Positions 13,362 through 61,689 of a stretch of 64,000 nucleotides of DNA are shown here, one piece after another. Under the pieces are notes generated by a model, which ran no database searches, was not told the DNA's origin, and saw only the letters and a program-made list of their open reading frames with translations. The DNA is from a plasmid: the NCBI RefSeq assembly GCF_054482525.1, contig NZ_JBTHVG010000003.1. One strand, given 5' to 3'. The stretch's first letter is position 1. Each line of letters opens with the position of its first letter. A program made the position numbers and the translations under genes.

Positions 13362-13515
13362 CAGAATCCTTTCATCCTAGCTTGTATACCTTCTTCGTAG
13401 GCCAGCTCGCCATTATCGGTAAAAGATGGTTTTTGGTGTTTGTGACAAAGCTTAATTTTTCGTCAGGCTCGATAGCGTTACCGGAGAGATTTGATCTTTT
13501 CTCTGTAACTCGCAA

Positions 13516-13535
13516 TACTGTTTATACATACAGTA
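13516..13535 (+). promoter_or_regulatory. LexA (SOS) box TACTGTTTATACATACAGTA upstream of the umuD-like gene
   Basis: CTGT-N8-ACAG palindrome 20 bp upstream of the start at 13555. Confidence 0.7.
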
Positions 13536-13554
13536 TGAGAATTCGAGTGTAGCT

Positions 13555-15232: not shown

Positions 15233-15277
15233 CGGCCATGACCGGCATGGCCGTACTCATCAAAAGTGAAAGTAACT

Positions 15278-16087
15278 TTAGGCCCCGCGAGCTTTTTCGA
15301 TTGCGCCCTGCAAAGTTGCTGCGTCCATAGCCCCGGGGATAAATGTGGTAGTCGCCGCATTCGGCTTTTTCATATTCATAATGATGAAGCCGGGTGTGCC
15401 GGTGATCCCAAGCGCTTCGCCCAGCTGCATGTTGCCGGAGATCACGTTTTCATATCGGTTTTTTTCCCTGTCAGAAAACGTGCTGTTAAACCCTGACTTA
15501 TCCACCACAGTATTAAAGTCGCTGAGTTCGAATTTGCGTTGAGAGGTCATGAAGGTATGAGCCACAGCCATCAGGTTGTTGTGGTATTTACGATAGGCTT
15601 CAGCACCGAAATTCTGATAGACGTGCAGACCCGTAGCGGCCCCCATGGCAGATACAGGTTTTGAACCGGCAAAAATCGGGAATTCTTTAAAGAAGAATTT
15701 TACATCTTTGCTCTGATTCATTACCGATTCAACAACAGGTGTAACCCGCATGCAGTAAATACACTGATAGTCGAAGAACTCGATTACCGCGACGTCGGCG
15801 TCATCCGGGCCGATGTTTGGCGTCTCCTTGGTATCCAGCAGAGCTGGCGCATATGGAATTATTCGTTCCACTGAGGCACTTACGTTCTGATTTTCCAGCG
15901 CCTTACCTGCTTCCACTAAATAATGGGGATTTTTTACCAGGTAAGTAGCGGCAATTTTGCCAATTTCTTCCTCACTGAGCACCTTCGGTTTAAAATAAGT
16001 TGCCGCGATTAACGCCGAGGCAGCGGTAGCAATTACCGCAGAAATTAAAATCGTGGCCATCGGTTTTAAATAAAATTCTTTAGACAT
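15278..16087 (-). CDS. Membrane-anchored thioredoxin-fold (DsbA-like) disulfide oxidoreductase
   Basis: N-terminal TM segment; CxxC motif (CIYC) in ...FFDYQCIYCMRV... Confidence 0.5.
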   Translation of the reverse strand: MSKEFYLKPMATILISAVIATAASALIAATYFKPKVLSEEEIGKIAATYLVKNPHYLVEAGKALENQNVSASVERIIPYAPALLDTKETPNIGPDDADVAVIEFFDYQCIYCMRVTPVVESVMNQSKDVKFFFKEFPIFAGSKPVSAMGAATGLHVYQNFGAEAYRKYHNNLMAVAHTFMTSQRKFELSDFNTVVDKSGFNSTFSDREKNRYENVISGNMQLGEALGITGTPGFIIMNMKKPNAATTTFIPGAMDAATLQGAIEKARGA

Positions 16088-16193
16088 AGCTACCTTTATG
16101 CTTTTCAGCCTGTTAGTTATTAACCTGCGATGGATTATACTGGCCCGGTAAATCGGAATTATTCGTGAAACAATGCTTTTTGGAGATTAAAGG

Positions 16194-16805: not shown

Positions 16806-16864
16806 AAGCAGACGGCGGGAAGAGAATGTTCAAAAGTGACTTTTGGACACGCACATAAACGTGG

Positions 16865-17287: not shown

Positions 17288-17320
17288 CTTTTTTCCTTCT
17301 GGACGCTCTCAGTCAATAAA

Positions 17321-17719
17321 TCAGGCCAGGCGCTCATTGAAAGCTACCACGAGCTGCGAATCGGGATTTTTTACCAGTTCGGGCCGGATAACTTTTAGTT
17401 GCCTCGTTGGGGCGAGCTCATCTGTAGGCCTGATGGTGGTATTACCCGGCCCCTTGCGGGTACTGTCGGTGTTTACCTTGAGCTTTTTATTTCCCAGGTA
17501 GCTTTCCATCTTTTTAGAGATGGTGTCACCTGTGGTCGCAACACCAGAGAGTTCCTTTAGTTGTTCACCTTGATCCATTTGTACCGATGACATCAGAAAT
17601 ACGATTCCTGGATCGTTTTCCGTTCCACAGGCTCCGTACTGACATTGTGCAGCGAAAACGGGCTGTACACCTACAGCAACCAGCATTAACGTACTCAGTA
17701 AAGTAGATTTCATACACAC
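17321..17719 (-). CDS. Secreted protein, hypothetical (signal peptide)
   Basis: MKSTLLSTLMLVAVGVQPVFA signal; probable true start at 17713. Confidence 0.45.
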   Translation of the reverse strand: MCMKSTLLSTLMLVAVGVQPVFAAQCQYGACGTENDPGIVFLMSSVQMDQGEQLKELSGVATTGDTISKKMESYLGNKKLKVNTDSTRKGPGNTTIRPTDELAPTRQLKVIRPELVKNPDSQLVVAFNERLA

Positions 17720-17733
17720 CTCTTACAGTCGGA

Positions 17734-17744
17734 AAAGTTACTTT
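17734..17744. promoter_or_regulatory. AAAGT(A/T)ACTTT palindrome copy
   Basis: ggAAAAGTTACTTTTGcg; between DsbC-like stop and next gene start. Confidence 0.5.
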
Positions 17745-19826: not shown

Positions 19827-19837
19827 AAAGTAACTTT
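19827..19837. promoter_or_regulatory. AAAGT(A/T)ACTTT palindrome copy
   Basis: ttAAAGTAACTTTTACgg; convergent intergenic. Confidence 0.5.
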
Positions 19838-25362: not shown

Positions 25363-26778
25363 TCAGTTACGTGTGCCACGAATACTTTCAGTGAAAGCCT
25401 TCCGTTGCAGGCGACGGTTATCCCAGGTTGAAATGACGTCCGAGCTGGTACCGACCTGGCTGTGCGATAGCTCATAGGCGGCTTTAACCTGTTTTGAGAG
25501 ATTGTCTGTTAATCGGTTGAGATCATCCCTTTTACCCGACAGCGACTCACTCGGTATGCTCATGGTTGAAATTTTGGCCTCAACCTGGCGCAACATGTTG
25601 ATTACGAGGCTCGTCGCAGCAATAGTGCTTATGTCCTGAATGTATGCGTACCCTTCCGGTGCTTCGAATGTTTGCAAAGAGTCGATAATGGTCGGGATGC
25701 CGATATAGGAGATAATGCGTAATTCATCATCTGAAACACGAACGTCGTTGATGATTTTTTTCTGTACGTTTAAAAGAAGATCAGAAATGGTATCCTTCAA
25801 TCCCTTAAAACCACCGTCATTAACTTCTGACATGACAAGGCACTGAGCCTTTCGTGGGGATGATGGATCTGGTGCCGGAGAACACTTGAGCATTTTAATT
25901 GATCCGCCAGCTGGTGGCCCCATGATGTAATCCGTGACAGTCATGGTAGACGGGCGGACTTCCATTCCCGCTTTTTCGCCTTTGCTATCCCAGTTGATAA
26001 TGACAGTACCCACGAGAGACATAAGTTGTTCTGCCAATTTATAACCGGATAACTCCGTTACCCCTCCGATGTTCATTGTTCCCTTATCAATATCCATGAA
26101 CGACATATAGAAGAGGTTACCACTGAATTTTTCAGCGAACTCTTCGGGATCCTTTGCTTTAACCTGAGAAGTGACAGCTTCAGGTGACTTTGTCATCGAT
26201 GAGCCAAAATCAGGAATGAGACCATTAATCGATCCCAGAATTGAGGCTGGTCCAGAGCTAACTGAGTTAGCAAACTGGCTTGGCGTACCCACGTTTTCAG
26301 AAAGGAAAGAGTAAGTTGCATTGCATGAATCTTTCGCAAATTTATTTAGCGCTTGCAGTTTGTTTTGGATGTCATTAATCGTTGCAGCACAGTCAGCACA
26401 AATAGCTGAAACAGCAACGTTAAAAGCATAGATAGCCGCACCCTGGGCAATACCACGGGCCACCTGCACAAGCTGGTCCCCGTTGATCATGCTGAAGGAC
26501 CCAAGAAAAACGTCAATACCATTACAACCGACAGAAGCTTTTGGAAACGACATGGAAACAAGGTTGGTATTAACGTTTGTTGTTCGGTAAGACATTGACC
26601 CGCCAACTATGCCTGTACGGGTTGCTGTGGAAAAGGTGGCCGGGCTGGTAGACGTCATCATGCCATTGAAAATGTTACGCATTGCGTTGTCTGCATTTGC
26701 AGTCGGGGCTAAAATTGCAGCACAAACAGAAAGAGACAAAAGTAACTTTTTGAAGTTGAAAACGGCATTACTGCGCAT
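25363..26778 (-). CDS. F-type TraH-like pilus assembly protein
   Basis: Signal peptide (MRSNAVFNFKKLLLSLSVCAAILAPTANA); size and position match TraH; start reassigned from 26841. Confidence 0.6.
   Translation of the reverse strand: MRSNAVFNFKKLLLSLSVCAAILAPTANADNAMRNIFNGMMTSTSPATFSTATRTGIVGGSMSYRTTNVNTNLVSMSFPKASVGCNGIDVFLGSFSMINGDQLVQVARGIAQGAAIYAFNVAVSAICADCAATINDIQNKLQALNKFAKDSCNATYSFLSENVGTPSQFANSVSSGPASILGSINGLIPDFGSSMTKSPEAVTSQVKAKDPEEFAEKFSGNLFYMSFMDIDKGTMNIGGVTELSGYKLAEQLMSLVGTVIINWDSKGEKAGMEVRPSTMTVTDYIMGPPAGGSIKMLKCSPAPDPSSPRKAQCLVMSEVNDGGFKGLKDTISDLLLNVQKKIINDVRVSDDELRIISYIGIPTIIDSLQTFEAPEGYAYIQDISTIAATSLVINMLRQVEAKISTMSIPSESLSGKRDDLNRLTDNLSKQVKAAYELSHSQVGTSSDVISTWDNRRLQRKAFTESIRGTRN
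26739..26749. promoter_or_regulatory. AAAGT(A/T)ACTTT palindrome copy
   Basis: caAAAGTAACTTTTTGaa; at the TraH-like / TraF-like junction. Confidence 0.45.
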
Positions 26779-28921: not shown

Positions 28922-29722
28922 TTAATAATCCTTTAACATAACTTTATTTGTTAAAGTGTTGAACACATCCTGACGGTGACTGGTGAACATAGTGTCATAA
29001 CGTAATAGTTCCATCAAATCATCACTAACTTTTCCTAACCGGATGTCAGCAGACAATTCATAAGCCCAGGCAAAAACTTTCGTTTTAAGTGAAACACTCT
29101 CTTCAATATGCCCTTGTGAGAAAGCAATTGTACGTGGGAAAAGAACGACATCGTTAATTGTTTTTAACGATGAATAACCAATGTCTTTAATAGCATCAGC
29201 TGTAGTTGGTTTTAAACCAAAGAAAACACTTACAAACTCTGGTGCGAGCATTGAGATAAAGAACACCTGCATAAAGTAGTCATTCTGTATATCAACACAT
29301 TTAGAACGCAACTCATGAATCTTCTTGGGATTATAGATATCCACTGTACCATTCAGAAAAGTCACTTTTTCACCGGCATCGTAAATACCATAGTCAATAT
29401 CATTTGTATCATATTCACGAATTACATTGGAATCACCGTCCAAGACCGCAGAAAAAAACCTCTCCCATGTAATTTCCTTTCCGAGTGTACGCGGAACCAA
29501 AAAACTACCTGGACGTGTTTCCACTTCAAAAGCTAAATCAGCGGCTGTACTAAATCCTTTCCCAAATAGGCGACGCTGGAGAAGAGGAGTCCCAGTTTGA
29601 TATGCAGAAGATCCATGCACAGGCAATAACATTAAAAATGCACGGTAACTACGAATAAGCGAAATCTCAGTGCGGAAAAGTTTACCGAGTAAGCTACGAG
29701 TTAAATTATCAGATTCTGACAT
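28922..29722 (-). CDS. Hypothetical protein (possible transfer regulator), first gene of the minus-strand transfer operon
   Basis: 266-aa ORF; palindrome copy 76 bp upstream of its start. Confidence 0.45.
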   Translation of the reverse strand: MSESDNLTRSLLGKLFRTEISLIRSYRAFLMLLPVHGSSAYQTGTPLLQRRLFGKGFSTAADLAFEVETRPGSFLVPRTLGKEITWERFFSAVLDGDSNVIREYDTNDIDYGIYDAGEKVTFLNGTVDIYNPKKIHELRSKCVDIQNDYFMQVFFISMLAPEFVSVFFGLKPTTADAIKDIGYSSLKTINDVVLFPRTIAFSQGHIEESVSLKTKVFAWAYELSADIRLGKVSDDLMELLRYDTMFTSHRQDVFNTLTNKVMLKDY

Positions 29723-29798
29723 GTGCTGATTGTCCTTGCGCCATTACAATTGTTCAAATCTTCAACATGGATTTTTTGTTAGGTGTTCGGTAGGGTGA

Positions 29799-29809
29799 AA
29801 AGTAACTTT
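29799..29809. promoter_or_regulatory. AAAGT(A/T)ACTTT palindrome copy
   Basis: gAAAAGTAACTTTTAGta; 76 bp upstream of gene 28922..29722. Confidence 0.5.
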
Positions 29810-30049
29810 TAGTATTTTCTTAAGGCTTGAATAAGCCTTAAATCTATCCCTTCAACCACACCGCTTACTTGTAACACTTTTTAACCAAACTGACCAGAAT
29901 TTTATCAAAATTTCTTCGCATGCTAACGAAATGTGAAGCGATTAAAAAAAAACCTAAATCCAGCCCCTCCCAACGTTGGATTAGAATAACGACGTCTTTC
30001 ACTGACCGTCATAAACTGACATTTTTACTTTTCATCAACCTCATGCTTA

Positions 30050-30215
30050 CATAGGATCACTAAACAAAGAAAAGTGACCCTATGAATACCTCACATAGGG
30101 TCACTTATGTTTGAAAAGTGACCCTATGTAATGTCGTCATAGGGTCACTTTTTATAAAAGTGTCACTATGGACAAAGTTCCATAGGGTCATTTTTTTTGG
30201 AAAAGTGGCACTAGA
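30050..30215. repeat. Four tandem ~44-bp units each built on an inverted repeat (AAAGTGACCCTATG-N9-CATAGGGTCACTT); candidate oriT or iteron region
   Basis: Units at ~30071, 30115, 30158, 30201 read directly; divergent intergenic region between the mating-pair and relaxase operons. Confidence 0.55.
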
Positions 30216-30283
30216 TATATGTATAACTTTAATAGAGCAATGCACATTATCAAAAGCAATAATCCACAATGGTCATTCCCTCA

Positions 30284-30294
30284 AAAGTAACTTT
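30284..30294. promoter_or_regulatory. AAAGT(A/T)ACTTT palindrome copy
   Basis: cAAAAGTAACTTTAGAgg; upstream of the relaxase operon, next to the tandem repeats. Confidence 0.5.
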
Positions 30295-30426
30295 AGAGGG
30301 TAGCGATGGAAGTGAGGCTAAACTCGCTGTTACTGTTTCTGAAGGCCCCTCCCGAATGGGGGAAACAGCGAGTGCATTACATCTGTTCAATTCCCTCATC
30401 AAAGAGCATTCAAAAATCTTCTGTTC

Positions 30427-30966
30427 GTGAAAAAAAACGGAAATTTCCTCCGGTATAGTAATTTCACATCAGGAGGCGTCATGAGTAATTCGAATCTTAT
30501 AAGTTCTATAGAGCTAACACGTAAAAATTTACGTGCTCAGATTGAAGGTTTGCGTGTTGAGGCTGAAGATCTCATTACAAAATACTGGATCAAGTGGAAG
30601 GAACGAAACCACCAAGAGATTAACCTTACCCGACATAGCAAAGTTCCAAAGAGGGAGTATCTGGGTTCTTACGCACCAAAAGTTGAGCTAATTGGTAATG
30701 CCAGAAAAGTAACGATCACTTGGCATCAGTTCAGCCCTTATAAAACAAGAGCGCCTAGTCACATGTCAAAACGGGTGCAACCAATGAAAAGTGGAAAATA
30801 TTCTAAGAACTGTTTTGTAAACCATGCCAGCTGGGAATACGAAATGATTTCTGAAACGGAAGCATTGCTGGAGCCTTACAGAGAAATGCTTGAGCTCTAT
30901 CATTCAGCATATATCGAACTTGGACGAAAAATCCGTCAATACTCAAAAACTAAGGTGGCACAATGA
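30427..30966 (+). CDS. Hypothetical protein, first gene of the relaxase operon (possible relaxosome accessory)
   Basis: 179-aa ORF; probable true start at internal MSNSNL. Confidence 0.45.
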   Translation: MKKNGNFLRYSNFTSGGVMSNSNLISSIELTRKNLRAQIEGLRVEAEDLITKYWIKWKERNHQEINLTRHSKVPKREYLGSYAPKVELIGNARKVTITWHQFSPYKTRAPSHMSKRVQPMKSGKYSKNCFVNHASWEYEMISETEALLEPYREMLELYHSAYIELGRKIRQYSKTKVAQ

Positions 30967-31703: not shown

Positions 31704-34700
31704 ATGATGATGAATTTCAGGGCGCTGTATTTATGTATTAAACGGATTTTGGGGATATTCTCATCTCAGGAGAATGATGCAACCTCTGTAATGATTGAGG
31801 ATATATCAAGCCTCTCTCCTTTTGCGCAGATTCTAGGAGATCAGAAGTACACTGTTCCTGATCATCCAAATCCAGAAGTCCTGAAATTCATCGAGTATCC
31901 AACTCGTCCGACGGGCATACAGACATTTAATGAACAGTCAATCCTGTCTCTGTATCGGGAAAAGCTGCACTCAATTTCAATGATGTTAGCTATCAGCGAT
32001 AGCGACATCAGGGACGATGCATATACATTTACTAATTTAGTATTAAAGCCCTTGGTTGAATATGTTCGCTGGATACATCTTTTGCCAGCTTCCGAAAATC
32101 ATCATCATAATGGTATTGGTGGGTTACTTTCTCACAGCCTGGAAGTGGCCATACTCTCTTTAAAAAATGCGCATCACTCAGAACTGAGACCAATCGGATA
32201 TCAAGATGAAGAAGTAGTCCGTAGAAAAGTATATCTCTATGCTGCGTTTATCTGTGGTTTAGTCCATGATGCCGGAAAGGTTTACGATCTCGATATTGTA
32301 AGCCTGAATTTAGCTAGTCCGATCATTTGGACGCCAAGCTCACAAAGTCTTCTTGACTGGGCACGTGAAAATGACGTGGTTGAATACGAAATCCACTGGC
32401 GAAAGCGTATTCATAATCAACATAATATCTGGTCCAGCGTTTTCCTTGAGCGAATCCTAAACCCGGTATGTCTTGCATTTTTGGATCGGGTAAATAAAGA
32501 ACGTGTTTATTCAAAAATGATCACCGCCCTAAACGTTTATACTGATGGGAATGACTTTTTGTCTAAATGCGTGAGGACCGCTGATTTCTATTCTACTGGT
32601 ACAGACCTTAATGTTTTACGTGACCCTATCATGGGTCTGCGTTCTAATGATGCAGCAGCAAGGGCCATTAGTACCATCAAGCACAACTTTACCAGTATCA
32701 ATATCAACAATTACAATGCTAAGCCTATGCACATCATTATCGTAAATGGTGAGGTATACCTTAACGAGAACGCATTCCTTGATTTTGTTCTCAATGATTT
32801 CGAATTACATAAATATAACTTCCCTCAGGGAGAGGCTGGTAAGACGGTATTGGTAGAATCCCTAGTTCAACGTGGTTACGTCGAGCCCTATGATGATGAG
32901 CGTGTCGTTCACTACTTCATTCCGGGTATCTATTCGGAAAACGAAATATCAAACATCTTTAGAAATGGGATAGGGAAACTAGAATTCTATAACCTTCTTA
33001 AGCTAAGGTGGATTGGTTTAATCTTTGATTCCTATAAAATCCCTGACTCAGTGCCGGGTCTTTTTAGCGTTAATGCCAATAAAGACTTTATTTACATTGA
33101 CGAGCAAAAAACAGTTACTGAATACAGAAGACCAGTGCCCGGTCGGGACGCTATAACTAAAATTACTGATACTGTTGAGACGGCTGTTCTTAAGGTTAAT
33201 GATTTAGGCCGCTCCACTGCCTCTATTGATGTTGATATACATTCTAAGAAAAATGAAGGCTCATCCGACGATTTTGAGAAGAAAGCCGAAAGTGATAATG
33301 AAATTGATAATGACACGCAGATAGTTAAATCTGAGGGTGAGGAAGCAGCTGATCCTGTCATTCCTGATATAGAAGAAAGTGAAGATGAATCGGCAAAGGA
33401 CACGGAATCCCATGTCCTGGTCAACCAACTTCATGAACTCCTTTTAAGCGCTCCACTTTCCAATGACTATATAGTGTGTGTAGATGCTGTCCCCTACCTC
33501 AACATAGATGCCACTATGGCATTGCTGCCGGGATTAGATGAAAAAGCATTTAGTGAAGAGCCCTATTTCCAACTGACATTCAGAGAAGGCTCTCTCGATG
33601 GAATGTGGATAGTAAGGGACATTGACGATCTGCGTTTAGTCCAGCTCGGCGATAACTGCGCCGGGTTCCAGCTCACCTATCATGAGCCAAGAAGGCCAAC
33701 AACTTTAAAGTCACTTTTCAATACTTCTATGTATCAGGCATTAGTGATTAATGATGAGTCTTCTGTTGAAAACTCTGCCCCACGTCCAAAGCAAACGCTT
33801 GAGCTGCCTCCCCCACGTGTAAATGCAGTCGAAGAACATTCTGGCGACGTGGAATATCATGGAACCGATAGTGCATCCGCGACTGGTCCGCTGAAAACTG
33901 AGGCTGTGGAATATGAACATTATCAACATCTTTTTGAGGAAGAAGATGAAGAGCATGAGATCATTGATTATACCGATTTCACACAGCTTAGTGTTTCTCG
34001 GCCAGAAGTCGGTAGTTGTGCAACAAGCTCTTCGGTCCATAATGAAAAGCTTCTCCCCGAGCCGTCAGAATTACCAGAACTTAACCGAGAACAGAACGCT
34101 GATCCCCAGGGTACGATTGAACGCTCTATGGATGTTTCTGTAGGACAAGAAAACTCAGAACCAGATACTGAGGGTAACTGCCCACCACCAGCTGAAGTTG
34201 TGTATTCCCAGACCGAAGCAGCCGCAACCAGTGTGATGGCAAGTGAAGAGCCCGCCTTACCTCCTGTACTTGAAGAATCAAATGGAGAGCATGCGCCCAC
34301 AGACGCTAAGGGGCATCATCTTTCGCCAGCACTGGCCAGACTGTTCGCCCCAACAGCACCGGTAGAAAAACAAAATCCCAAGCGCAACCGGAATAAATCA
34401 TCGGACAAAGCAGAAGTACAAAAACCAGCATCACCTGTTTCTGGTCACAATCTGAACAGTAAAGTCTTTGCAACTACTGAATCAGACCAAAATGGTGAAT
34501 TCTCGCTTATAAGCGAAGGTGACGTTACAGAGCTTGAATTTGTAGAAATTGCGTCAGTACTGCATCAAATTCTGTCCAAAATGGAGGTGGCGTTTAAAAG
34601 AAAGCGCAAAAACAGATTTATGGTAAGTACTCCTAATACTCTCTATCTGACCCAATCTTGCGTGGAAAAATTTGGGTCGCAGTTAGAGGCTCAAGATCTT

Positions 34701-34856: not shown

Positions 34857-36940
34857 TGTCAGATTCGAAGAGGACTAACCTCCATGCACAAGAGAATTTT
34901 TATCGGCCTATTCTTGAGTATCGTAGTGCCTCAATACTTTTGATTTGTTCGGTTTCTATGCTTTATATGGGACTTTCTTCAGACGGACTGGACATCGCCC
35001 CAATAGTTCTGTTCACCTCAATATTGCTTTTTTTGCTGTGCCTTTATCGTTGCAAAACAGCAGCGCCATTCTTGATGGCTCATTGGCGTGTATTCAAGCG
35101 ACATTTCATGTTCGTTAGTCTTGATTCACTGCGTGTAATTAACAAAAGTAACTTTTTCTCCAATGAGCGAAAGTATCGTCAACTGGTTCAGGATTATCAA
35201 AATAAAAATAAGGATATACCCGAGCGAAAGTCCTATTTTTGTGATGGGTTTGAGTGGGGCCCGGAACATGCGGATCGGGCATATCAAATAGCTAACCTCT
35301 CCAGTGATAAACGTGAGATCGAGTTGCCATTCGTCTTCAACCCAATTAAGAGACATTTTGACGCAATGGCTCGTAAGATGGGCGGCAGCAATGCAATTTT
35401 TGCTGTGGAACGTAGGGAACCCATATTTGTAACTGAAGACAATTGGTTTGGTCATACTCTGATAACCGGAAACGTGGGTACCGGGAAAACGGTGCTACAG
35501 CGTTTACTAAGCATTAGCATGCTTCATCTTGGTCATGTTGTTGTTGTCATAGATCCAAAGAACGATGCAGAGTGGCGAGAATCTCTAATGGAAGAGGCTA
35601 AGACCCTCGGTCTTCCTTTCTATAAATTTCATCCTGGCCAGCCAGCATCTTCGGTCTGTATTGATGTCTGCAACACCTATACTAATGTTTCTGACCTAAC
35701 ATCTCGTCTTTTGAGCTTGGTGACAGTTCCCGGTGAGGTTAACCCATTCGTTCAGTATGCCAAGGCTCTCGTTTCCAATGTGATTTCCGGGCTTTCTTAC
35801 ATAGAGAAAAAGCCTTCTATTTATCTGATTCACAAGAACATGAAAAGCCACATGTCTATTGTGAATCTTACAGTCAAGGTAATGGAGTCATGTTACGCGA
35901 GATATTATGGTTACGATGTCTGGACCGAAAAAGTTAAGTACGTCGCTAACGAAACCTTGCCGGTACGTTTCAAGCGTCTCGCTGAATGGTTTACGGCTCA
36001 TTTCATGAATTACGAGGGGTCCGAACAAATAGACTGGTTAGATACTGTTTCCCAGCTTATTGATTACTCAATGTCCGACCCAGAGCATATGGCTAAAATG
36101 ACCGCAGGTATTATGCCTGTTTTCGATATGCTCATTGAAAAACCTTTAAATGAGCTTTTATCTCCTAACCCGAACTCAGTATCATCAAGAGAAATTGTAA
36201 CAAGCGAAGGGATGTTCAGCACTGGCGGGGTGCTATACATTTCGCTTGATGGCCTTTCAAACCCCGATACAGCAGCTGCTATTTCTCAATTAATAATGTC
36301 AGATCTGACCTCCTGTGCCGGTAGTCGCTACAACGCTCAGGATGGTGATATGTCAGCTAATTCCAGGATAAGTATTTTTGTTGATGAGGCACACTCAGCC
36401 ATTAACAACCCTATGATTAACCTTCTGGCGCAGGGTCGTGCAGCGAAAATTGCACTGTTTATTTGCACCCAAACCATCTCCGACTTTATTGCTGCGGCAA
36501 GTGTTGAAACTGCCAATCGAATTACGGGGCTCTGCAACAATTATATAAGCTTGCGAGTCAACGATACTCCTACTCAGACGCTTGTTGTAGAGAACTTTGG
36601 TAAGAGTGCGATAAGCACAAATATGGTCACTTATACGACCGGTTCAGAAACATCTTTGCCGCATAATAACTTCTCAGGTTCAATCTCAGAAAGAAAGCAG
36701 ACAACTTTAGAAGAGAGTATTCCAAAGGATCTCTTGGGTCAGGTCCCTATGTTTCACATAGTTGCCAGGCTTCAAGATGGCAGGAAGGTTGTAGGCCAAA
36801 TCCCTATTGCTGTTGCTGAGAAACAAATGAAGCCAAACACAACTCTGTCGGAAATGCTTTTCAAGAAGGCCGGAAAAGTTACTTTGCGTCAAAATCTCGA
36901 TATCAAAAATCTTAATAAATTTCTAAGGAAGTTTCATTGA
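34856..36940 (+). CDS. Type IV coupling protein (TraD/TraG/VirD4 family ATPase)
   Basis: N-terminal TM; Walker A GNVGTGKT; Walker B FVDEAH. Confidence 0.8.
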   Translation: MSDSKRTNLHAQENFYRPILEYRSASILLICSVSMLYMGLSSDGLDIAPIVLFTSILLFLLCLYRCKTAAPFLMAHWRVFKRHFMFVSLDSLRVINKSNFFSNERKYRQLVQDYQNKNKDIPERKSYFCDGFEWGPEHADRAYQIANLSSDKREIELPFVFNPIKRHFDAMARKMGGSNAIFAVERREPIFVTEDNWFGHTLITGNVGTGKTVLQRLLSISMLHLGHVVVVIDPKNDAEWRESLMEEAKTLGLPFYKFHPGQPASSVCIDVCNTYTNVSDLTSRLLSLVTVPGEVNPFVQYAKALVSNVISGLSYIEKKPSIYLIHKNMKSHMSIVNLTVKVMESCYARYYGYDVWTEKVKYVANETLPVRFKRLAEWFTAHFMNYEGSEQIDWLDTVSQLIDYSMSDPEHMAKMTAGIMPVFDMLIEKPLNELLSPNPNSVSSREIVTSEGMFSTGGVLYISLDGLSNPDTAAAISQLIMSDLTSCAGSRYNAQDGDMSANSRISIFVDEAHSAINNPMINLLAQGRAAKIALFICTQTISDFIAAASVETANRITGLCNNYISLRVNDTPTQTLVVENFGKSAISTNMVTYTTGSETSLPHNNFSGSISERKQTTLEESIPKDLLGQVPMFHIVARLQDGRKVVGQIPIAVAEKQMKPNTTLSEMLFKKAGKVTLRQNLDIKNLNKFLRKFH
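35145..35155. promoter_or_regulatory. AAAGT(A/T)ACTTT palindrome copy (intragenic)
   Basis: cAAAAGTAACTTTTTCtc; inside the coupling protein gene. Confidence 0.4.
36875..36885. promoter_or_regulatory. AAAGT(A/T)ACTTT palindrome copy (intragenic)
   Basis: gAAAAGTTACTTTGCGtc; 3' end of the coupling protein gene. Confidence 0.4.
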
Positions 36941-40909: not shown

Positions 40910-41272
40910 TCAGGGGTTTAACGCCGGAATATTTTGCCAGGCCTCCTGCAAGGTCTGCAAGACTTCTACAAGTGATAGTGACGGCCACAGGACTGTTTCC
41001 GTCATTATCACTCCAGGTGGCTCGCACTCTACTGGTACCAGAATTAAAACAACACGAGTTCCTTTTACCTGGTAGGCAAGGTTTACTGCCGGTTGGCGGT
41101 AGGAGGCCAGTACACCCTCACCATATTGAGCAGGGTTACTTGCCCAGTTCCGCACCATTGCATACACCTGAGGCATATACCGACTATCCAGATCCCCTTT
41201 GGGCCGTCTGAACGGCACGATTTCTTCTGAGCGGTAGGTGGTCGTTGTTGTATTGGTTGTCATCTTTGTCAC
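40910..41272 (-). CDS. Hypothetical protein
   Basis: 120-aa ORF in minus-strand array. Confidence 0.35.
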   Translation of the reverse strand: MTKMTTNTTTTTYRSEEIVPFRRPKGDLDSRYMPQVYAMVRNWASNPAQYGEGVLASYRQPAVNLAYQVKGTRVVLILVPVECEPPGVIMTETVLWPSLSLVEVLQTLQEAWQNIPALNP

Positions 41273-41328
41273 CTCCCCTGTTCGTCCATTTAGAGTTTTA
41301 AGCTGCTTTACACATCACACTCAACTGA

Positions 41329-41613
41329 TTATTTAAGCTGGTCATCGTCTCTGGCCAGCATAGCCCAACCATTCGACTGGTTTTCGCGGGAGTAAGGATT
41401 CATTTCAAAATAACTATCTACCGCGTCGCTGTCCGCAACAGAACTGTTGTTAGCTCTCTTTGAACCCTGAACCACTACAGCATCAACCTCTGCGGCTTTC
41501 CCGTTGCGCTGTACCAGGATTTTAACCGTCTTGGGCTTACGTCTTGCGAGCAGTTTGTTGGCGATAAAAAGCACAACAATCCAGGCCAAAAGCACGTATA
41601 AAAATTTATTCAT
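41329..41613 (-). CDS. Small membrane-anchored protein, hypothetical
   Basis: N-terminal TM; palindrome copy 164 bp upstream. Confidence 0.4.
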   Translation of the reverse strand: MNKFLYVLLAWIVVLFIANKLLARRKPKTVKILVQRNGKAAEVDAVVVQGSKRANNSSVADSDAVDSYFEMNPYSRENQSNGWAMLARDDDQLK

Positions 41614-41776
41614 AATGCCCTCCTTTGTATGTGATTATTATACCTGCTTCCATTGCAGGCCAAACAGGTTCGGTGTATGAAAAATAGACTTCTCTCCGGC
41701 GTATAGCAATCTACTTACTGATCTGTTTTCGTATCAAACTGTATGGCATAACCGAGGGGCGTACGTGGTGAGTCAG

Positions 41777-41787
41777 AAAGTTACTTT
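41777..41787. promoter_or_regulatory. AAAGT(A/T)ACTTT palindrome copy
   Basis: aGAAAGTTACTTTTCCgt; upstream of gene 41329..41613. Confidence 0.5.
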
Positions 41788-41969
41788 TCCGTAATAGTTA
41801 ATTTCAGATCCTTCTTCCAGTTACGCTTCAGTATAAAACCGATACCCTCTAATTCAGCATCCTTCACGTTTAATACGCTTCACTTTAAGGCAGGGCTTTT
41901 CGGTTGATATGAATTCTTTTTCCGGTTGCTGGACATGGGTTTCATCCTGATAGTTAAAATTGCAGGCTA

Positions 41970-42272
41970 TCAGTCACCACCACCACCTCCTCCTCCTCCT
42001 CCTCCACCGCCACCATCACAACCACCAGCTATGCTATTTTCACCATTACAATCACCTCCGAGGGGGTTCAAATGGCTGCTCCCCTGTAGATGGTGTCCTT
42101 GCCAGATCGAACCCGAACCAGCGCCTCCTGAGCGTCTTTGCTTGCCCTGAGGCAATTGTGCAGGCTCACCAGCACCGGCGGTCCCAAAAATGTCCCGGGC
42201 AATTTTATAAAGAAGGTAAAAAGGTACGCCCAGCATCATAAAAAAGATTCCTGAAAATATTACACGTTCCAT
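41970..42272 (-). CDS. Small membrane protein with C-terminal poly-glycine tract
   Basis: N-terminal TM then Gly-rich tail ending G13-D; tract encoded by the CCN repeat. Confidence 0.35.
   Translation of the reverse strand: MERVIFSGIFFMMLGVPFYLLYKIARDIFGTAGAGEPAQLPQGKQRRSGGAGSGSIWQGHHLQGSSHLNPLGGDCNGENSIAGGCDGGGGGGGGGGGGGD
41976..42030. repeat. Trinucleotide (CCN)n tract (~14 units; CCA/CCT/CCG)
   Basis: ccaccaccaccacctcctcctcctcctcctccaccgccacca read directly. Confidence 0.8.
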
Positions 42273-42704
42273 TGATGATCTCCTGTCTTGTGAGAGACCA
42301 GTTATATCAGGGTGATTCAGTATTTCCGTTTAGAAAAGAGTACTAATTTGGCCCTGTTCGATCTTAATTTGCCATCCGGGAAAAAGTCATAGGGATAGGC
42401 CTGCCAGAGTCAATAACTTCCAGTGATCTGGAGGAGACCCCGGCTCTCTGAGCCCTCATGGATGGTACGGCTTTACCCCCTGTAAACAGATTCACGTTCC
42501 GCAGGACAAACATCGACTACTGACGTCTCATATTTGCTGACGCTAATCCGACGTCTCATTGCCGTCTGCTTGTTTTCTTTAAAGGGTGTATTAGACGAAT
42601 ATCAAATCGGAATGGTAGGGGATGTGTGGGCACCATGCCCGGCCCTCTTTGAGCATCTGAGAGATTGGAGACCTAGCCGGGTAAGATAGCTACTTTCTTA
42701 CGGG

Positions 42705-43073
42705 TTACCCTTCAAATCCAAAGACGAAACGGACGCTGCCGTTCTCCACGTGGAGACGCTTTACTTCTTCGACAAATTCCTGGATCACCTCTCCGGCGTT
42801 ATCGGGTGGTATGGCTGACAAAATTTCTTCCGAAGTCAGCCATGAGTATGAATGTTCACCGAATAAATCATCATCTTCGGACGGTATATCATCAGGTAAT
42901 CCGCGTAATGCGTGGATAAAAACTGCTGATGTGCTCGCCCTTTCACGATCTACATCAAATCCGAGCCAGGCAAAGTGGAGATATGATCGGTCCCCTTTAT
43001 AATTGCTTGATAAATTAATCCATTTACCAGGCTTTTCTTCCCTTTGAAATCGCCAGCAGATATCAACGCCCAT
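42705..43073 (-). CDS. Hypothetical protein
   Basis: 122-aa ORF. Confidence 0.35.
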   Translation of the reverse strand: MGVDICWRFQREEKPGKWINLSSNYKGDRSYLHFAWLGFDVDRERASTSAVFIHALRGLPDDIPSEDDDLFGEHSYSWLTSEEILSAIPPDNAGEVIQEFVEEVKRLHVENGSVRFVFGFEG

Positions 43074-43237
43074 TAAGAAACTCCATTACTATCGTTCGTA
43101 TGAGATAACTATCATTTCAGAATACTATGACTTCTTCCCGTATAGAACTAATCGCTCACGCCAACTGGGCGAAGCCAACCGGTTCCGCCACTTCGCTCAT
43201 TGGTTTTTAGGCGTAAGCACTGAAGCCAGTCTCCATG

Positions 43238-43780
43238 CTAACTGGCGAGCCTGCGAAAGTCAGACTCGTTGTTATAAAGCGGCATATCGTAAGCGGTGTC
43301 TGAAATGAACATGCGGATCTGCTCAAGCGTCATGCCACAATGAAAACGGTTTACGCTCACATTGGCCCGGGGGAAGTCAGCACAAAACGCATTCAAAACA
43401 TTTTCATGGACAATGCCAATGTTGATCAACGCAGCTGGCCCGTTGTCACGGAAGGATACGACACGGAATCCCCCATACCAGCCTGAATGGGAGAAAAATG
43501 AAAATGCGCCGGATGCCAGACCATTAGACAGGTCATAGCGCAATTTCCCGCACAGAGACTGGCTGTCTTTGCTGTACACGCGATTAATGAAAATACCGGG
43601 ACCAACTTCTACCGGCTGCTTGTTGCTTGCTAAACACGGAAAGCCCACCAGCGAAACCTCCCTTTCTCCTGACCAGTTTACCTGATACCCGGCAGTGAGA
43701 AAGTCCGTCAGTTCTACGCCAGAAAGAGCATTAATGGCCGCGATATCGGTAGTCAAAATATTTACGTTTTTCATATTCAT
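43238..43780 (-). CDS. Hypothetical protein
   Basis: 180-aa ORF. Confidence 0.4.
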   Translation of the reverse strand: MNMKNVNILTTDIAAINALSGVELTDFLTAGYQVNWSGEREVSLVGFPCLASNKQPVEVGPGIFINRVYSKDSQSLCGKLRYDLSNGLASGAFSFFSHSGWYGGFRVVSFRDNGPAALINIGIVHENVLNAFCADFPRANVSVNRFHCGMTLEQIRMFISDTAYDMPLYNNESDFRRLAS

Positions 43781-43841
43781 CTCATCTTTATTCTAAAGTG
43801 CGTTTTTTGTCTATCAGCCCGAGGATTGAAAATTTGAATAT

Positions 43842-44279
43842 TTAATGTGACAGATAAATACCTGTCACTTTTTCAAAAACAGCCTGTAATTGAATATCGA
43901 GAGAGTTCATTTTAAAATCCACCAGCTCAGCTTTATTATCGCAAACCAAATAAAAATAGGAGTCAAATGCGTCTGTATCTTCATCTTTAAAAATACGGAA
44001 GGAATTAATTTTATCATGCCCTTCAAATTCGGCATGAATACCATAGCGAACCGAGCCGTCATCGAACTGAACAACCCGTCGTACAGAATTAATCCGGACG
44101 TACTGTTTTAAGGCCCTCGCGAAATCGGCATTTAACGCCAACGCTCGTAAGATTGAATCAGCGGTTTCATTCTGCTTTTTACGATCGTATTCAAATATCC
44201 CACAGCCGGTGTTACGAAAGACCGGCTGAAGAGCATTAACCAGGTTGAAGGAATCCACGTTTCTGTCGTTTCTGTACAT
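43842..44279 (-). CDS. Hypothetical protein
   Basis: 145-aa ORF. Confidence 0.4.
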   Translation of the reverse strand: MYRNDRNVDSFNLVNALQPVFRNTGCGIFEYDRKKQNETADSILRALALNADFARALKQYVRINSVRRVVQFDDGSVRYGIHAEFEGHDKINSFRIFKDEDTDAFDSYFYLVCDNKAELVDFKMNSLDIQLQAVFEKVTGIYLSH

Positions 44280-44323
44280 GAGATATCTCCTGCCCCTCCG
44301 CTATACGAAGGGGCTTGATAGGG

Positions 44324-44620
44324 TTACTGCCAGGCTGCGATCACTTCTTCGCACTGGAAATGAGATAAGCACTGCTGGAGTAGAAGAGCCAGCACCGCTG
44401 TGTTAGGGACGCGATTGTTACACCACGCGTTGAAAAGCAGCTGCCATGGACCGGCATAATACCCGGCCAGTTTCTTTTTTTGTTTAGCTGTACGGCAGCG
44501 GGAAATGGCCTGCTGATAAAGGCTTTCATTCTCATCACCAGCCCGTTTTTGCAGAGTGCGATAAATATACGAATAAAGACTGTCAGAACAGTTTGAAGCG
44601 TACGCCAGTTGTTTTTTCAT
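44324..44620 (-). CDS. Hypothetical protein
   Basis: 98-aa ORF. Confidence 0.3.
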   Translation of the reverse strand: MKKQLAYASNCSDSLYSYIYRTLQKRAGDENESLYQQAISRCRTAKQKKKLAGYYAGPWQLLFNAWCNNRVPNTAVLALLLQQCLSHFQCEEVIAAWQ

Positions 44621-44740
44621 AATACCTCCTGTTTAGAAGTATTATATGTAAACAGCCTCAGCGGCTAATAACCCGTAGCAATATAATTTGCATTTTTTCT
44701 ATTTCTGAAGACGCTTTTTAAATTAATATTTACTGAGTTA

Positions 44741-45019
44741 TCACAACTTATTATTCTTCCCGTCTGCTGTTTTATTAATCCCCCAGTTAGTAATCACGCC
44801 AAGTCGGCGCAATTTTTCACGTTGTTCATAAATAAAAAAATCGCCAAGGCAGTCTTTTAAAACTTCACTATCCTGATATTTTATTTTTTGAAGCATCCTC
44901 GCAACTATGGCGCGTTTCAGGAATATGGCTGCATCAGACTCAAGCATTTGTGAGGACTGTCTGACGGTCTCCTGCATGTCGACGATACTGCTGAGCTTTC
45001 GTCTGACCACGCTTAGCAT
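44741..45019 (-). CDS. Hypothetical protein
   Basis: 92-aa ORF. Confidence 0.3.
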   Translation of the reverse strand: MLSVVRRKLSSIVDMQETVRQSSQMLESDAAIFLKRAIVARMLQKIKYQDSEVLKDCLGDFFIYEQREKLRRLGVITNWGINKTADGKNNKL

Positions 45020-45203
45020 AGTGTCCGGGAACCGCTTAGCGGCTGAATGTAACCCGCAACAACGTTACGCATTGTTTTACTCACTGCAATTTTCCATTTA
45101 AGTCTGTTTGTTCCACCAGCTGCTAACATCAGCGTTATTCATCCTGAGGTTTCGCCCGCGATTGACAGATCAGAGGCAGCATGGATGAAATTGCCAGAGT
45201 AGA

Positions 45204-45485
45204 TCACTGCATACGCGAATAGTGGTTTGTATTCAGTTCTGCGTTTGCCTGCTTTTCCAGTGCTGTCATAACCCGGCGGAGCATCGCCAGAGCCTGAACA
45301 GGCGAGCTCCCAAACTGCACTTTCACTTCAGCCGTATCATGATCCTGAATCAGGTCGAGTATATTCACTTCGATCCCTGCCCCGTTTTCATCTTTTGCCG
45401 TGCACTGAATACTTACCCGGGTCACCGAATCCGTCAGGACTGGCAGTGGGTTAGTTTTGTCTACGTTGATAACAGCCTTCTTCAT
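45204..45485 (-). CDS. Hypothetical protein
   Basis: 93-aa ORF directly downstream of the ParB-like gene. Confidence 0.35.
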   Translation of the reverse strand: MKKAVINVDKTNPLPVLTDSVTRVSIQCTAKDENGAGIEVNILDLIQDHDTAEVKVQFGSSPVQALAMLRRVMTALEKQANAELNTNHYSRMQ

Positions 45486-45550: not shown

Positions 45551-46735
45551 TCATGACTGTCCCTTGTTCATCTTATCAGCATGCTTACGCAGGTACTCTT
45601 TCAGGTCAGCATGAGCGTTGATGATATCGTTCATTTCATCATTGGTCAGAACAAGCGTGTAAGTATCAGTACTGACAGATTCACCTTCTTTAAGCTTGGC
45701 TTCTTCAGCAATACGTTCAAAAATCGGGATCGCGGTGTCTGCAATGACGGTCACAGTCTTTTTGTTCAGAACGCTGGACATGGAAGGTGCTTTACCTGCC
45801 GGGTTCTGTTTAGGAGCGCTGTCCTTTGGAGCTGGAGCCGGTTCCTGTACCGGTGGCGTATCCAGCGTCTCCGTATTGCTTTCATCGTTCAGTTGATCCG
45901 GTACCGGGGTGTTATCGGTAGTATCATCTGCCGGTTGCTCAGCACCGATGTTTTCCGGAGTCTGCGGATCTGCCATGCGCTCTTCTACCTTGGCAGCTTT
46001 GACGAATTTCAGCGTGTTTTTCGTCGCCTTGCCATAGATGGAGATCGCTTTGTTGATGTTATCTACCGCATCCTCACCGCTGTACATATACTCGTCCAGT
46101 GCAACGTACATGCTCACCTGATCGCTCACAAGCATGGTCTGTAGTTCAGAAGGCAGGTCCAGTACGCGAACCATCTGGCGAAGATGCTGCTCTGATTTAC
46201 CACGTTTTTTTGCCAGTTCCGCAAAGGTCTTAGGCTCTTCTTTATCTTCAACCAGACGCTTAATTGAAAGCGCTTCAGCTACGACAGACAGCGCCAGGTT
46301 GGAGTTGCCGGTCAGGGTGAAGAGTTCTGCTTTTGAAGCGCTACCGCGAAACTCTTCGCAGCGAATACGAGTAATGCGTTCACGCCCTTCTGCTTCCAGC
46401 TGGCGGTTTGCAATAGCGATGGAACGGATACGGCAAGCCCCCTGACGCAGTACAGGTACGCCATTAACCATCTGAACAACGATAGGCGTCACGCTGAACG
46501 GGTCTTCCATGTAGGCATCGGCCAGGCTGTTCAGGTGTTCCACAACGTGAGGCATTGAATAGTAGAGCTCGCCCATACCGGCCGTGCGGGTGTTAAAGCC
46601 TTCCTGCTCTACAACAACCGAAGGGTCAATGATAAGGCCGTTGCCTTTACGGGCACCGTTACCAGTGCGTTCCAGGTAACCACGAAGGCTGATTTCGTTG
46701 CTGTTGTTTTTTACTTCAGTTTCGATTGCGGACAT
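45551..46735 (-). CDS. ParB/KorB-like protein (ParB N-terminal domain, putative HTH, acidic Pro-rich linker, C-terminal domain)
   Basis: N-terminal ...GNGLIIDPSVVVEQEGFNTRT...; ...HLRQMVRVLDLPSELQ... HTH-like; two palindrome copies upstream. Confidence 0.55.
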   Translation of the reverse strand: MSAIETEVKNNSNEISLRGYLERTGNGARKGNGLIIDPSVVVEQEGFNTRTAGMGELYYSMPHVVEHLNSLADAYMEDPFSVTPIVVQMVNGVPVLRQGACRIRSIAIANRQLEAEGRERITRIRCEEFRGSASKAELFTLTGNSNLALSVVAEALSIKRLVEDKEEPKTFAELAKKRGKSEQHLRQMVRVLDLPSELQTMLVSDQVSMYVALDEYMYSGEDAVDNINKAISIYGKATKNTLKFVKAAKVEERMADPQTPENIGAEQPADDTTDNTPVPDQLNDESNTETLDTPPVQEPAPAPKDSAPKQNPAGKAPSMSSVLNKKTVTVIADTAIPIFERIAEEAKLKEGESVSTDTYTLVLTNDEMNDIINAHADLKEYLRKHADKMNKGQS

Positions 46736-46825
46736 TTTTGTTCTCTTTTTTGGTTGGTTGTTTAACTGCGCTACAACACAACAATACCAGGTTCGACATT
46801 TTTCCTAATAGGTTGCGGAGAAGAA

Positions 46826-46836
46826 AAAGTAACTTT
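46826..46836. promoter_or_regulatory. AAAGT(A/T)ACTTT palindrome copy
   Basis: aAAAAGTAACTTTTTTta; 91 bp upstream of the ParB-like gene. Confidence 0.5.
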
Positions 46837-46951
46837 TTTTAAAAATTTTCCTGAGGCAATACTACTCGATCCGTCCGTTTTAAATCTTCACAACAGTGGG
46901 CCGTTTTTACGTTTAAGCAAAATAACTGGTTCAGAAGGTGACTCAGAGAGA

Positions 46952-46962
46952 AAAGTTACTTT
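46952..46962. promoter_or_regulatory. AAAGT(A/T)ACTTT palindrome copy
   Basis: gAAAAGTTACTTTTCCgg; second copy upstream of the ParB-like gene. Confidence 0.5.
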
Positions 46963-47150
46963 TCCGGTTGTCTGGGCCAGTGATGGGAGAGTGGCAGGAC
47001 AGGAATGGCTAAACCGGTGCGGGTCTCTTGTAAGTCGCAGGGGATTCAGGAGATATAGAGGTAAACTGGTACGTTCAGTTTTTGGATTGAGCCGGGCTTT
47101 TGGCCCGGGCTTAAGGAAGCAGAAATTTGAACGAACTGGCAGGTAATGCT

Positions 47151-56740: not shown

Positions 56741-56751
56741 AAAGTTACTTT
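56741..56751. promoter_or_regulatory. AAAGT(A/T)ACTTT palindrome copy
   Basis: gtGAAAGTTACTTTCCtg; upstream of gene 56397..56600. Confidence 0.5.
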
Positions 56752-58947: not shown

Positions 58948-58958
58948 AAAGTAACTTT
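58948..58958. promoter_or_regulatory. AAAGT(A/T)ACTTT palindrome copy
   Basis: tTAAAGTAACTTTCCCgg; intergenic. Confidence 0.5.
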
Positions 58959-61678: not shown

Positions 61679-61689
61679 AAAGTTACTTT
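61679..61689. promoter_or_regulatory. AAAGT(A/T)ACTTT palindrome copy
   Basis: tTAAAGTTACTTTTCTgg; 133 bp upstream of paralog B, downstream of the PAPS-reductase-like gene. Confidence 0.5.

Follow-up and report, generated by a model that had tools for sequence, protein, structure and literature searches.

On plasmids of the IncHI family, a short palindrome of the form aAAAGT-N-ACTTTt is dispersed over the backbone and strongly conserved, and an orphan ParB/KorB-like gene, p1, has two copies of it in its upstream region. We describe both here from a stretch of 64,000 nucleotides of plasmid DNA (NCBI RefSeq assembly GCF_054482525.1, contig NZ_JBTHVG010000003.1), hereafter called the window. The p1 gene (45551..46735, minus strand, ATG start) encodes 394 amino acids (aa) and its product, WP_001272970.1, is annotated as 'hypothetical protein'; it was recognised by its open reading frame, the annotation, Pfam, PHROG and Foldseek. 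We favour the view that p1 recognises the palindrome and uses it for regulation, a view to which we give about an even chance. The remaining weight is split between the paralogue p2 as the reader, another plasmid regulator, and a mainly structural role. In an earlier reading of this locus from the sequence alone (the sequence-only reading), p1 had been put forward as a candidate global regulator. The KorB-like fold and domain layout, the lack of a ParA partner, and a selected palindrome that is dispersed plasmid-wide and kept upstream of p1 orthologues all speak for that proposal, which is partly supported: p1 is a candidate binder, and p2 also has the motif upstream in several lineages.

A dispersed and conserved palindrome

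The two copies upstream of p1, AAAGTAACTTT at 46826-46836 and AAAGTTACTTT at 46952-46962, lie 126 bp apart, just where the sequence-only reading had placed them. Because they are reverse complements of each other, the element consists of 5-bp arms round a free centre base, or of 13 bp if the flanking A and T are counted (aAAAGTNACTTTt). The proximal palindrome, AAAAGTAACTTTT (46825..46837), is centred 96 bp upstream of the p1 ATG, and the distal one, AAAAGTTACTTTT (46951..46963), 222 bp upstream. An arm-mutant form of the 13-mer AAAAGTAACTTTT is, for example, AAAACTAAGTTTT.

The sequence AAAGTWACTTT is found 14 times in the window, against 0.06 times expected from dinucleotide shuffles, none of 100 shuffles reaching 14. 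Three extra sites with G or C at the centre bring the number to 17 with any centre base. In the complete sequence of the reference plasmid R478, AAAGTNACTTT occurs 54 times (0.43 expected) and the 13-mer 25 times (0.03 expected). An unbiased scan of R478 for palindromes with arms of 5-8 bp and gaps of 0-6 bp gave no other enriched palindrome besides five IS26 copies. The R478 copies are dispersed over the entire backbone, every few kb, and the large accessory blocks of this plasmid contain none, nor do positions 1-15268 of the window.

The conservation of the arms is well seen when IncHI2 is compared with IncHI1, the two sharing 72% nucleotide identity over 17.6 kb of aligned backbone. At seven orthologous sites the arm positions are identical in every case (70/70), and only the centre base differs, at two of them. 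Four of these seven sites are intragenic, in trhH, in the probable trhR gene and twice in traD. If the arms had diverged like their surroundings, 70 identical positions would be expected with a probability of ~0.72^70, i.e. ~1e-10. The palindrome is among those elements of the IncHI backbone that are under the strongest constraint.

A hairpin or terminator was considered and ruled out: arms of 5-6 bp, rich in A/T, round a 1-nt centre are unstable as a hairpin, and no terminator is predicted there. Since such short arms round one base form no hairpin, the palindrome is taken to be a duplex site for a dimeric protein. We know of no E. coli regulator with its consensus. In the searchable literature, to which the older subscription papers on R27 and R478 do not belong, there is no description of the motif string, of what p1 does, of an IncHI ParB-like regulator or of a plasmid-wide cis-element.

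Pairs of AAAGTNACTTT, separated by about 118 bp (or about 138 bp), are also present in several contigs of the Bacillota metagenome-assembled genome OH_HBB_241 (L100-L105) and of the Clostridia metagenome-assembled genome RGIG6488 (L043-L045). They seem to belong to a small repeated element that has no relation to IncHI plasmids. A scan of genome contigs for two palindromes 95-125 bp apart returned at least 120 loci from unrelated taxa, with no enterobacterial plasmid among the matches listed; these are apparently chance occurrences or unrelated repeats.

Placement of the copies along the backbone

Eleven of the 17 window copies are intergenic, against 19% of intergenic DNA in the backbone (p = 6e-5). 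By inspection of the annotation, about 33 of the 54 R478 copies are also intergenic, with a start codon typically following after 130-220 bp. The backbone copies adjoin the tra operons, the origin of transfer (oriT) and mobI, parM, hns, ter and long arrays of small genes.

This placement bears on the possibility that p1 binds the dispersed palindromes but plays mainly a structural role. Like Noc or ParB, it could form a loading network serving to compact, position or protect the 200-kb plasmid, for instance directly after entry into the recipient, or it could counteract H-NS silencing as VirB does. Many conserved sites are intragenic or located between convergent genes, and their recurrence every few kb would suit such a role. 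So would the plasmid-encoded H-NS and Hha, the use of dispersed palindromes by Noc and chromosomal ParB, and the position of p1 in a long co-oriented array of small genes next to the relaxase operon, a setting reminiscent of a leading or establishment region. However, the intergenic enrichment and the typical distance to the start codon suit regulation better, and the box II and III residues needed for a CTP (cytidine triphosphate)-driven clamp are degenerate in p1. A mainly structural role seems to us rather improbable.

The vicinity of the tra operons points to another candidate. The palindrome could be the target of a different plasmid regulator, i.e. the TrhR/TrhY pair, HtdA or an uncharacterised backbone protein, p1 then being a member of the regulon with a different DNA target. 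In R27, mutation of htdA derepresses 139 of the 181 expressed genes at 25 °C, a control exerted via TrhR/TrhY, which activate the tra operons and on which HtdA acts at the protein level (PMC7366339). In addition to the copies adjoining the tra operons, one of which is 77 bp upstream of the probable trhR, about 150 backbone proteins without annotation leave room for such a regulator. On the other hand, no DNA-binding domain was detected with Pfam or NCBIfam in TrhR, TrhY or HtdA, and for this reason the three are neither implicated nor dismissed. The action of HtdA on TrhR/TrhY at the protein level also does not favour it as the reader. Many sites are inside genes or distant from tra genes, and there is no promoter at a fixed distance from the sites, unlike what is expected for a classical activator. 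We consider it unlikely, though less so than a structural role, that one of these other regulators is the reader.

Fold and nucleotide pocket of p1

Pfam gave a single match in p1, HTH_ParB (PF17762; residues 149-209, E 1.5e-5), a family named for its helix-turn-helix (HTH) and detected in 11 of 17 p1 orthologues. The NCBIfam models parB_part and Noc match the same stretch with scores under the cut-off, whereas PHROG_1033 ('ParB-like partition protein') spans residues 24-255 with E 1.6e-21. Sequence matches in the PDB are 6s6h and 6t1f, the DNA-binding domain of Caulobacter ParB. An AlphaFold2 model built from the 17 orthologues has a predicted local distance difference test score (pLDDT) above 90 for about residues 20-255, a disordered region at 258-321 (pLDDT <50) and a small helical C-terminal domain at 322-394. 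When this model was compared with the PDB using Foldseek, the first match was the RK2 KorB-KorA-DNA complex 8qa9 (E 1.6e-8, TM score 0.66 for the target), followed by Myxococcus ParB, Noc, Caulobacter ParB and Thermus Spo0J (E 1e-8 to 1e-6, more than 215 columns). As modelled, p1 is assigned to the ParB-CTPase/HTH superfamily. That KorB ranks first does not by itself speak for p1 as a member of the KorB subfamily.

Four regions can be distinguished, all on the minus strand. The N-terminal ParB/Srx-type domain (about residues 20-145; 46301..46678), modelled with pLDDT >90 from the 17 orthologues, contains box I (FNTR), box II (LRQGACRIR) and box III (GNSNL). It is followed by the predicted ParB-type HTH DNA-binding domain (about residues 149-255; 45971..46291), to which the Pfam and PDB sequence matches correspond, and by a disordered acidic Pro-rich linker of about 64 aa (residues 258-321; 45773..45964), which varies in length and sequence between orthologues. 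The C-terminal domain (45554..45772), with helices 325-346 and 365-392 (pLDDT 50-76), is conserved in orthologues and is presumed to be a dimerisation module. The same order of domains had been read from the sequence, and Pfam, PHROG_1033, AlphaFold2 and Foldseek, taken together, uphold it. Structure prediction had been suggested as a check of the ParB/KorB fold and of the HTH; the PDB structures that match the model best are KorB, ParB and Noc.

Seven residues are invariant in the 17 orthologues: R50, G99, C101, R102, R104, G143 and N144. From our own alignment with B. subtilis Spo0J, we take the p1 boxes to correspond to its GERRxR and ENLQR. On this presumed correspondence, the pocket keeps R50 of box I, G99, R102 and R104 of box II, and N144 of box III. 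In GERR, the Glu and the first Arg are replaced (E to A and R to C), as are the Glu and Arg of ENLQR, which reads GNSNL in p1. The Arg equivalent to R80 of ParB and R117 of KorB is retained and the catalytic Glu of ENLQR is gone. Because these two GERR residues and this catalytic Glu are lost, a CTP switch in p1, which would be atypical, is probably hydrolysis-poor or absent. A conserved segment, GNGxRKGNGL (residues 25-34), was compared with the LG[KR]GL-type peptide that interacts with ParA; in the model it is inside the folded N-terminal domain.

The architecture also bears on whether p1 could be a host-directed orphan ParB like HerB/YfjB of the F plasmid, acting on the recipient chromosome without a defined motif, in which case the nearby palindromes would reflect regulation of the p1 gene alone. 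HerB is a ParB-like protein of conjugative plasmids for which no binding motif could be identified, and the search for its homologues demanded all four domains (PMC13370423). Like a protein of this type, p1 is without ParA and lies among small establishment-type genes. However, it does not have the D3 and D4 domains that define HerB, but a KorB-type linker and C-terminal domain instead, and a host-directed function of this kind appears very improbable.

Absence of a ParA partner

No parA is annotated in the backbone of the window, and neither korA nor incC is among the annotated neighbours of p1. In R478, the bona fide ParA/ParB pair is encoded at 15475-17729 and is accompanied by a ParM module at 20835; round the circular replicon, p1 is about 70 kb away from them. 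Directly upstream of parA, an unannotated region of 3.8 kb is filled with 249-bp tandem arrays at 12516-13544 (4.1 copies) and 13974-15095 (4.5 copies) (L003), which are probably the Par1 centromere or an incompatibility region. The possibility that the palindrome is the Par1 centromere was ruled out, since Par1 has these separate repeat arrays. A classical type Ia ParB is encoded in an operon with ParA and next to centromere repeats; neither is found for p1. It was thus right to regard p1, which has no adjoining ParA gene, as an unlikely classical partition ParB. An adjacent ParA with clustered parS repeats in the full replicon would make it an ordinary partition protein, but the R478 sequence has ParA/ParB elsewhere, with arrays of their own.

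In the K. pneumoniae plasmid p1194_11_1, the region upstream of parA/parB contains a cluster of twelve AACAACnnnGTTGTT copies (L017, 25087-27106 and 30458). This is a centromere-like array, separate from the backbone-wide palindrome.

The motif upstream of p1 orthologues

Orthologous p1 loci were compared from IncHI1, Leclercia, Yersinia intermedia and a Klebsiella MOBH plasmid, in which the p1 proteins have 65%, 50%, 44% and 35% identity, respectively. All of these loci are rich in the motif: there are 11 copies in 41 kb for IncHI1, 5 in 21 kb for Leclercia, 7 in 21 kb for Yersinia and 20 in 40 kb for Klebsiella. The p1 orthologue itself is preceded by two perfect copies in IncHI1, one in Leclercia (plus one with a single mismatch), two in Yersinia and five in Klebsiella, and the non-coding sequence round these palindromes cannot be aligned across lineages. 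In 40 kb of an IncC plasmid with a related transfer system and without p1, the motif does not occur.

In four of the five lineages the proximal copy lies 96-116 bp ahead of the p1 ATG, its counterparts being those of the IncHI1, R478, Yersinia and Klebsiella loci, and the distal copy is conserved in IncHI1 and R478. The spacing between copies varies from 36 to 213 bp. The 126 bp found in the window had been regarded as the arrangement expected for an autoregulated gene; since it is not conserved, no specific arrangement for autoregulation can be read from it. A putative p1 promoter (46781..46808, minus strand) can be read from the sequence in a block conserved between IncHI1 and IncHI2, with TTAGGA as a weak -35 element, a spacer of 16 nt and the extended -10 element TGgTATTGT. 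It would put the palindrome centres near -57 and -183. A consensus promoter scan upstream of p1 flagged nothing.

Two distant orphan ParB-like genes, P0091 and P0034, have the variants CCAAGTTACTTGG and GCAAGTAACTTTTG upstream (L023, about 1450-1470, and L024, about 9880-9900). These variants keep the AAGTNACTT core and differ in the outer bases, and an analysis of co-variation might start from them.

Candidate readers of the palindrome: p1 and its paralogues

In the mechanism that we propose, a p1 dimer would use its ParB-type HTH to recognise the 13-bp aAAAGT-N-ACTTTt. Autoregulation would be served by the one to five copies ahead of its own gene, and with about 50 other copies p1 could be a plasmid-wide co-ordinator of backbone expression. 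As for KorB, its operators would not need to overlap promoters. We infer the binding of the palindrome by p1, the regulation of transcription by this binding and the sign of the regulation.

The presumed recognition helix of p1 keeps S181, H184, R186, [Q/K]187 and [R/K]190 across the lineages. Chromosomal parS, for comparison, is invariant among ParB proteins that are only about 35-45% identical. R478 encodes two further orphan ParB-like proteins, p2 (268858-270021, 387 aa, next to a Dam methylase gene) and p3 (273234-274286, 350 aa, next to RepB), and all three share the motifs GFNxR, VRQGHCR and GN. The p3 gene was not found in 240 of the 266 kb of a motif-rich Klebsiella plasmid, and its absence from this searched part argues against p3 as the binder. 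Both paralogues are probably the 'partition proteins' R0042 and R0153 of R27, which are induced under conjugation-permissive conditions (PMC7366339).

Several points weigh against p1. The H-x-R signature of its helix is also present in the IncC orphan ParB and in canonical ParB proteins, and Khare et al. reportedly traced KorB specificity, in 2004, to residues outside the HTH. As H-x-R is common in the family and KorB specificity lies elsewhere, the helix conservation favours p1 as the binder weakly. The motif is also kept in plasmids without p1, with at least 56 copies in p1194_11_1 (L017-L021) and 5 in 25 kb of pCF10-tmexCD1 (L016). In both of these individual plasmids the loss of p1 is associated with rearrangements by insertion sequences (IS), and since two plasmids have lost p1 in this way, it is dispensable for plasmid maintenance; the deletions may be recent. 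No promoter at a fixed distance from the palindrome sites is evident. Co-variation of palindrome and p1 was sought in the diverged orthologues, and the same motif was found in every lineage. This is uninformative because the motif is invariant and the p1 clade is narrow: the family proper forms three clusters at 50% identity among 1.84 billion representatives, more distant matches being orphans of the p2 or IncC type. A peptide-pattern scan of the genome-contig collection found no p1 relatives.

Part of this evidence bears equally on p2, which lies outside the window and could be the protein that binds the palindrome, p1 being merely one of its targets. It is present in all motif-bearing plasmids examined, including the p1-less ones that keep the motif. 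Its orthologues have perfect copies upstream, at 43 bp (L022), 13 bp (L025) and 117 bp (L017), the last of them with 8 sites clustered in the 2.6 kb ahead of the gene; these copies are a further argument against p1. In R478 there is a one-mismatch copy about 80 bp upstream of p2. However, the DNA-facing residues of the presumed p2 recognition helix differ radically between R478 (KSPTTISSLIRL) and Klebsiella (ISEMAVRQIISL) in spite of an identical motif, the p2 genes of R478 and pCF10 have no perfect upstream copy, and IncC has a p2-like orphan ParB with no motif copy in 40 kb. That p2 is the reader is, in our view, improbable to about the same degree as a structural role, and p1 is the protein that we favour.

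A broader hypothesis, which is speculative and which we think unlikely, is that the global switch of IncHI expression has a DNA-binding layer so far missing from it, made up of the palindrome and of the orphan ParB-like proteins (p1, possibly with p2 and p3). They would form a ParA-independent, KorB-like clamp or spreading network that loads at about 54 sites, conserved even within genes, silencing or de-silencing the whole 200-kb backbone. By this network the HtdA/TrhRY and temperature circuit would be linked to the genes of transfer (tra), partition, H-NS/Hha and establishment, and the network would be common to the whole super-family of IncHI1, IncHI2 and IncHI1B-type plasmids. IncHI conjugation and most IncHI genes are known to be under global control, by temperature, H-NS/Hha and HtdA-TrhR/TrhY. 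IncHI1 and IncHI2 plasmids, like their Klebsiella relatives of the IncHI1B type, are major carriers of resistance to multiple drugs, colistin (mcr) and carbapenems. The palindrome, together with an orphan KorB-like gene, offers a testable handle on how the backbone of a plasmid of 200-280 kb is co-ordinated, and possibly a target for interfering with plasmid spread.

Other sites in the window and surroundings of p1

The window, from a resistance plasmid, is IncHI2 backbone of the R478/pSTM6-275 type. The 1.8 kb round p1 are 100% identical to hundreds of conjugative IncHI2 plasmids of 210-280 kb from Salmonella, E. coli, Enterobacter and Klebsiella. Positions 11023-64000 are collinear with pSTM6-275 and mostly also with R478. 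Positions 1-11843 form an accessory segment bounded by IS26, which differs from the matching pSTM6-275 region and has no palindrome copy.

The p1 gene is located about 5 kb past the relaxase operon (mobI-mobH-traD, S49 peptidase, NERD nuclease) and oriented back towards it. Nine small co-directional genes (40910..45485, minus strand), whose functions are unannotated, follow on the 3' side; PHROG and NCBIfam gave no match for them, except two PHROGs of unknown function for 42705-43073. The sequence-only reading had p1 at the head of a nine-gene co-directional array. Nine further co-directional small genes do run from 45485 down to 40910, but they need not form one operon headed by p1: gaps reach 432 bp, a palindrome (41777..41787) lies in the intergenic gap 41614-41969, and Tn10 splits the array in R478. 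A (CCN)n/(GGN)n tract at 41977-42013 encodes 13 consecutive Gly at the C-terminus of a 100-aa open reading frame (41970-42272, minus strand), or poly-Pro on the opposite strand, and is possibly a slippage-prone repeat. The Tn10 insertion in R478 falls in the part of the array that contains this tract.

The remaining copies in the window come from the motif scan, with their context taken from the annotation and, where indicated, from IncHI1. The oriT-containing intergenic region (29723-30480) between the probable trhR gene and mobI has two. The first (29799..29809) is 77 bp upstream of the 266-aa gene 28922-29722 (minus strand), probably trhR, and its arms are identical in IncHI1; the second (30284..30294) is 197 bp upstream of mobI, and the same IncHI1 region also has two sites. 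Inside the 266-aa gene is the centre-C copy AAAGTCACTTT (29358..29368), for which the orthologous IncHI1 position has AAAGTTACTTT; the whole arrangement is kept in IncHI1. Other intragenic copies are at the 5' end of trhH (26739..26749; arms identical in IncHI1), in mobH (33707..33717, centre C), in traD (35145..35155, included in the IncHI1 comparison) and near the 3' end of traD (36875..36885; arms identical in IncHI1, centre base different).

Towards the accessory segment, copies are found between the convergent umuC and dsbA-family genes (15269..15279), in an intergenic position with centre G (16833..16843), at the junction of two minus-strand genes 21 bp upstream of the start at 17713 (17734..17744), and between convergent genes (19827..19837). 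Beyond p1, intergenic copies are upstream of a minus-strand block of small genes (56741..56751), upstream of a minus-strand small gene (58948..58958), and between a minus-strand small gene and a gene of the PAPS (3'-phosphoadenosine-5'-phosphosulfate) reductase family (61679..61689); the gap corresponding to the last one has a copy in IncHI1 too.

Comparison with known systems

The closest functional analogue of p1, by analogy of layout and sites, would be KorB of the IncP-1 plasmid RK2, a global repressor of the ParB family and a CTP-dependent sliding clamp, which is also its best structural match. KorB has the same layout, including a linker of 53 aa, and its operator TTTAGC(G/C)GCTAAA is found at 12 sites on the 60 kb of RK2 (PMC11790492). 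Both proteins have an N-terminal domain, an HTH DNA-binding domain, a disordered linker of about 55-65 aa and a C-terminal domain. Both operators, that of p1 being predicted, are 13-bp palindromes with 6-bp arms and one free centre base. The density of about one site per 4-5 kb is also alike (12 in 60 kb for RK2, 54 in about 200 kb of backbone here), and so is the presence of copies not only at the promoter of the regulator itself but also in further intergenic regions and within genes, binding and repression by p1 being presumed. Unlike KorB, p1 has no adjacent parA (incC) or korA and no Pfam match to the KorB domain, its boxes II and III are degenerate (GACRIR, GNSNL), its C-terminal domain is predicted to be helical whereas that of KorB is SH3-like, and on R478 it resides together with two orphan paralogues.

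VirB of the Shigella plasmid pINV is likewise a plasmid-encoded ParB-family regulator without ParA on a plasmid silenced by H-NS, and the IncHI plasmids are regulated by H-NS/Hha. VirB acts at few parS-like sites near virulence promoters, in contrast to the roughly 50 dispersed sites here. Noc of B. subtilis and chromosomal ParB bind dispersed palindromes and are structural matches of p1 (E 1e-7); however, they are chromosomal, and p1 has neither the membrane-targeting N-terminus of Noc nor a ParA to work with, as ParB has.

Among plasmids of the MOBH/MPF_F type, IncC also has a ParB-family protein ('KorB domain-containing') and a dispersed palindrome, ACTTTCACATGTGAAAGT, with 7 copies in 40 kb. 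Unlike p1, this ParB is encoded beside ParA, the palindrome is unrelated in sequence, and IncC has no AAAGTNACTTT copy and no p1 orthologue. On the IncC plasmid pCFA1707-3 (L015), (A)CTTTCACATGTGAAAG(T) is located at 290, 3873, 4332, 9647, 12983, 24027 and 27442, one of these copies being just upstream of parA and the 'KorB domain' parB. It adds a second case of a ParB-type palindrome scattered over a MOBH plasmid. HerB/YfjB of F-like plasmids is another ParB-like orphan encoded by conjugative plasmids, and it has both an HTH and a domain that binds CTP, but it has 652 aa, an extra D3 domain, a D4 dimerisation dome and motif-free binding to the host chromosome, whereas p1 has 394 aa, a C-terminal domain of about 70 aa and a sharply defined plasmid motif nearby. 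With its predicted binding, p1 joins a known kind of non-segregational ParB-family DNA-binding proteins, that of KorB, VirB and Noc, and if this is true, the theme would be extended to another family of large plasmids.

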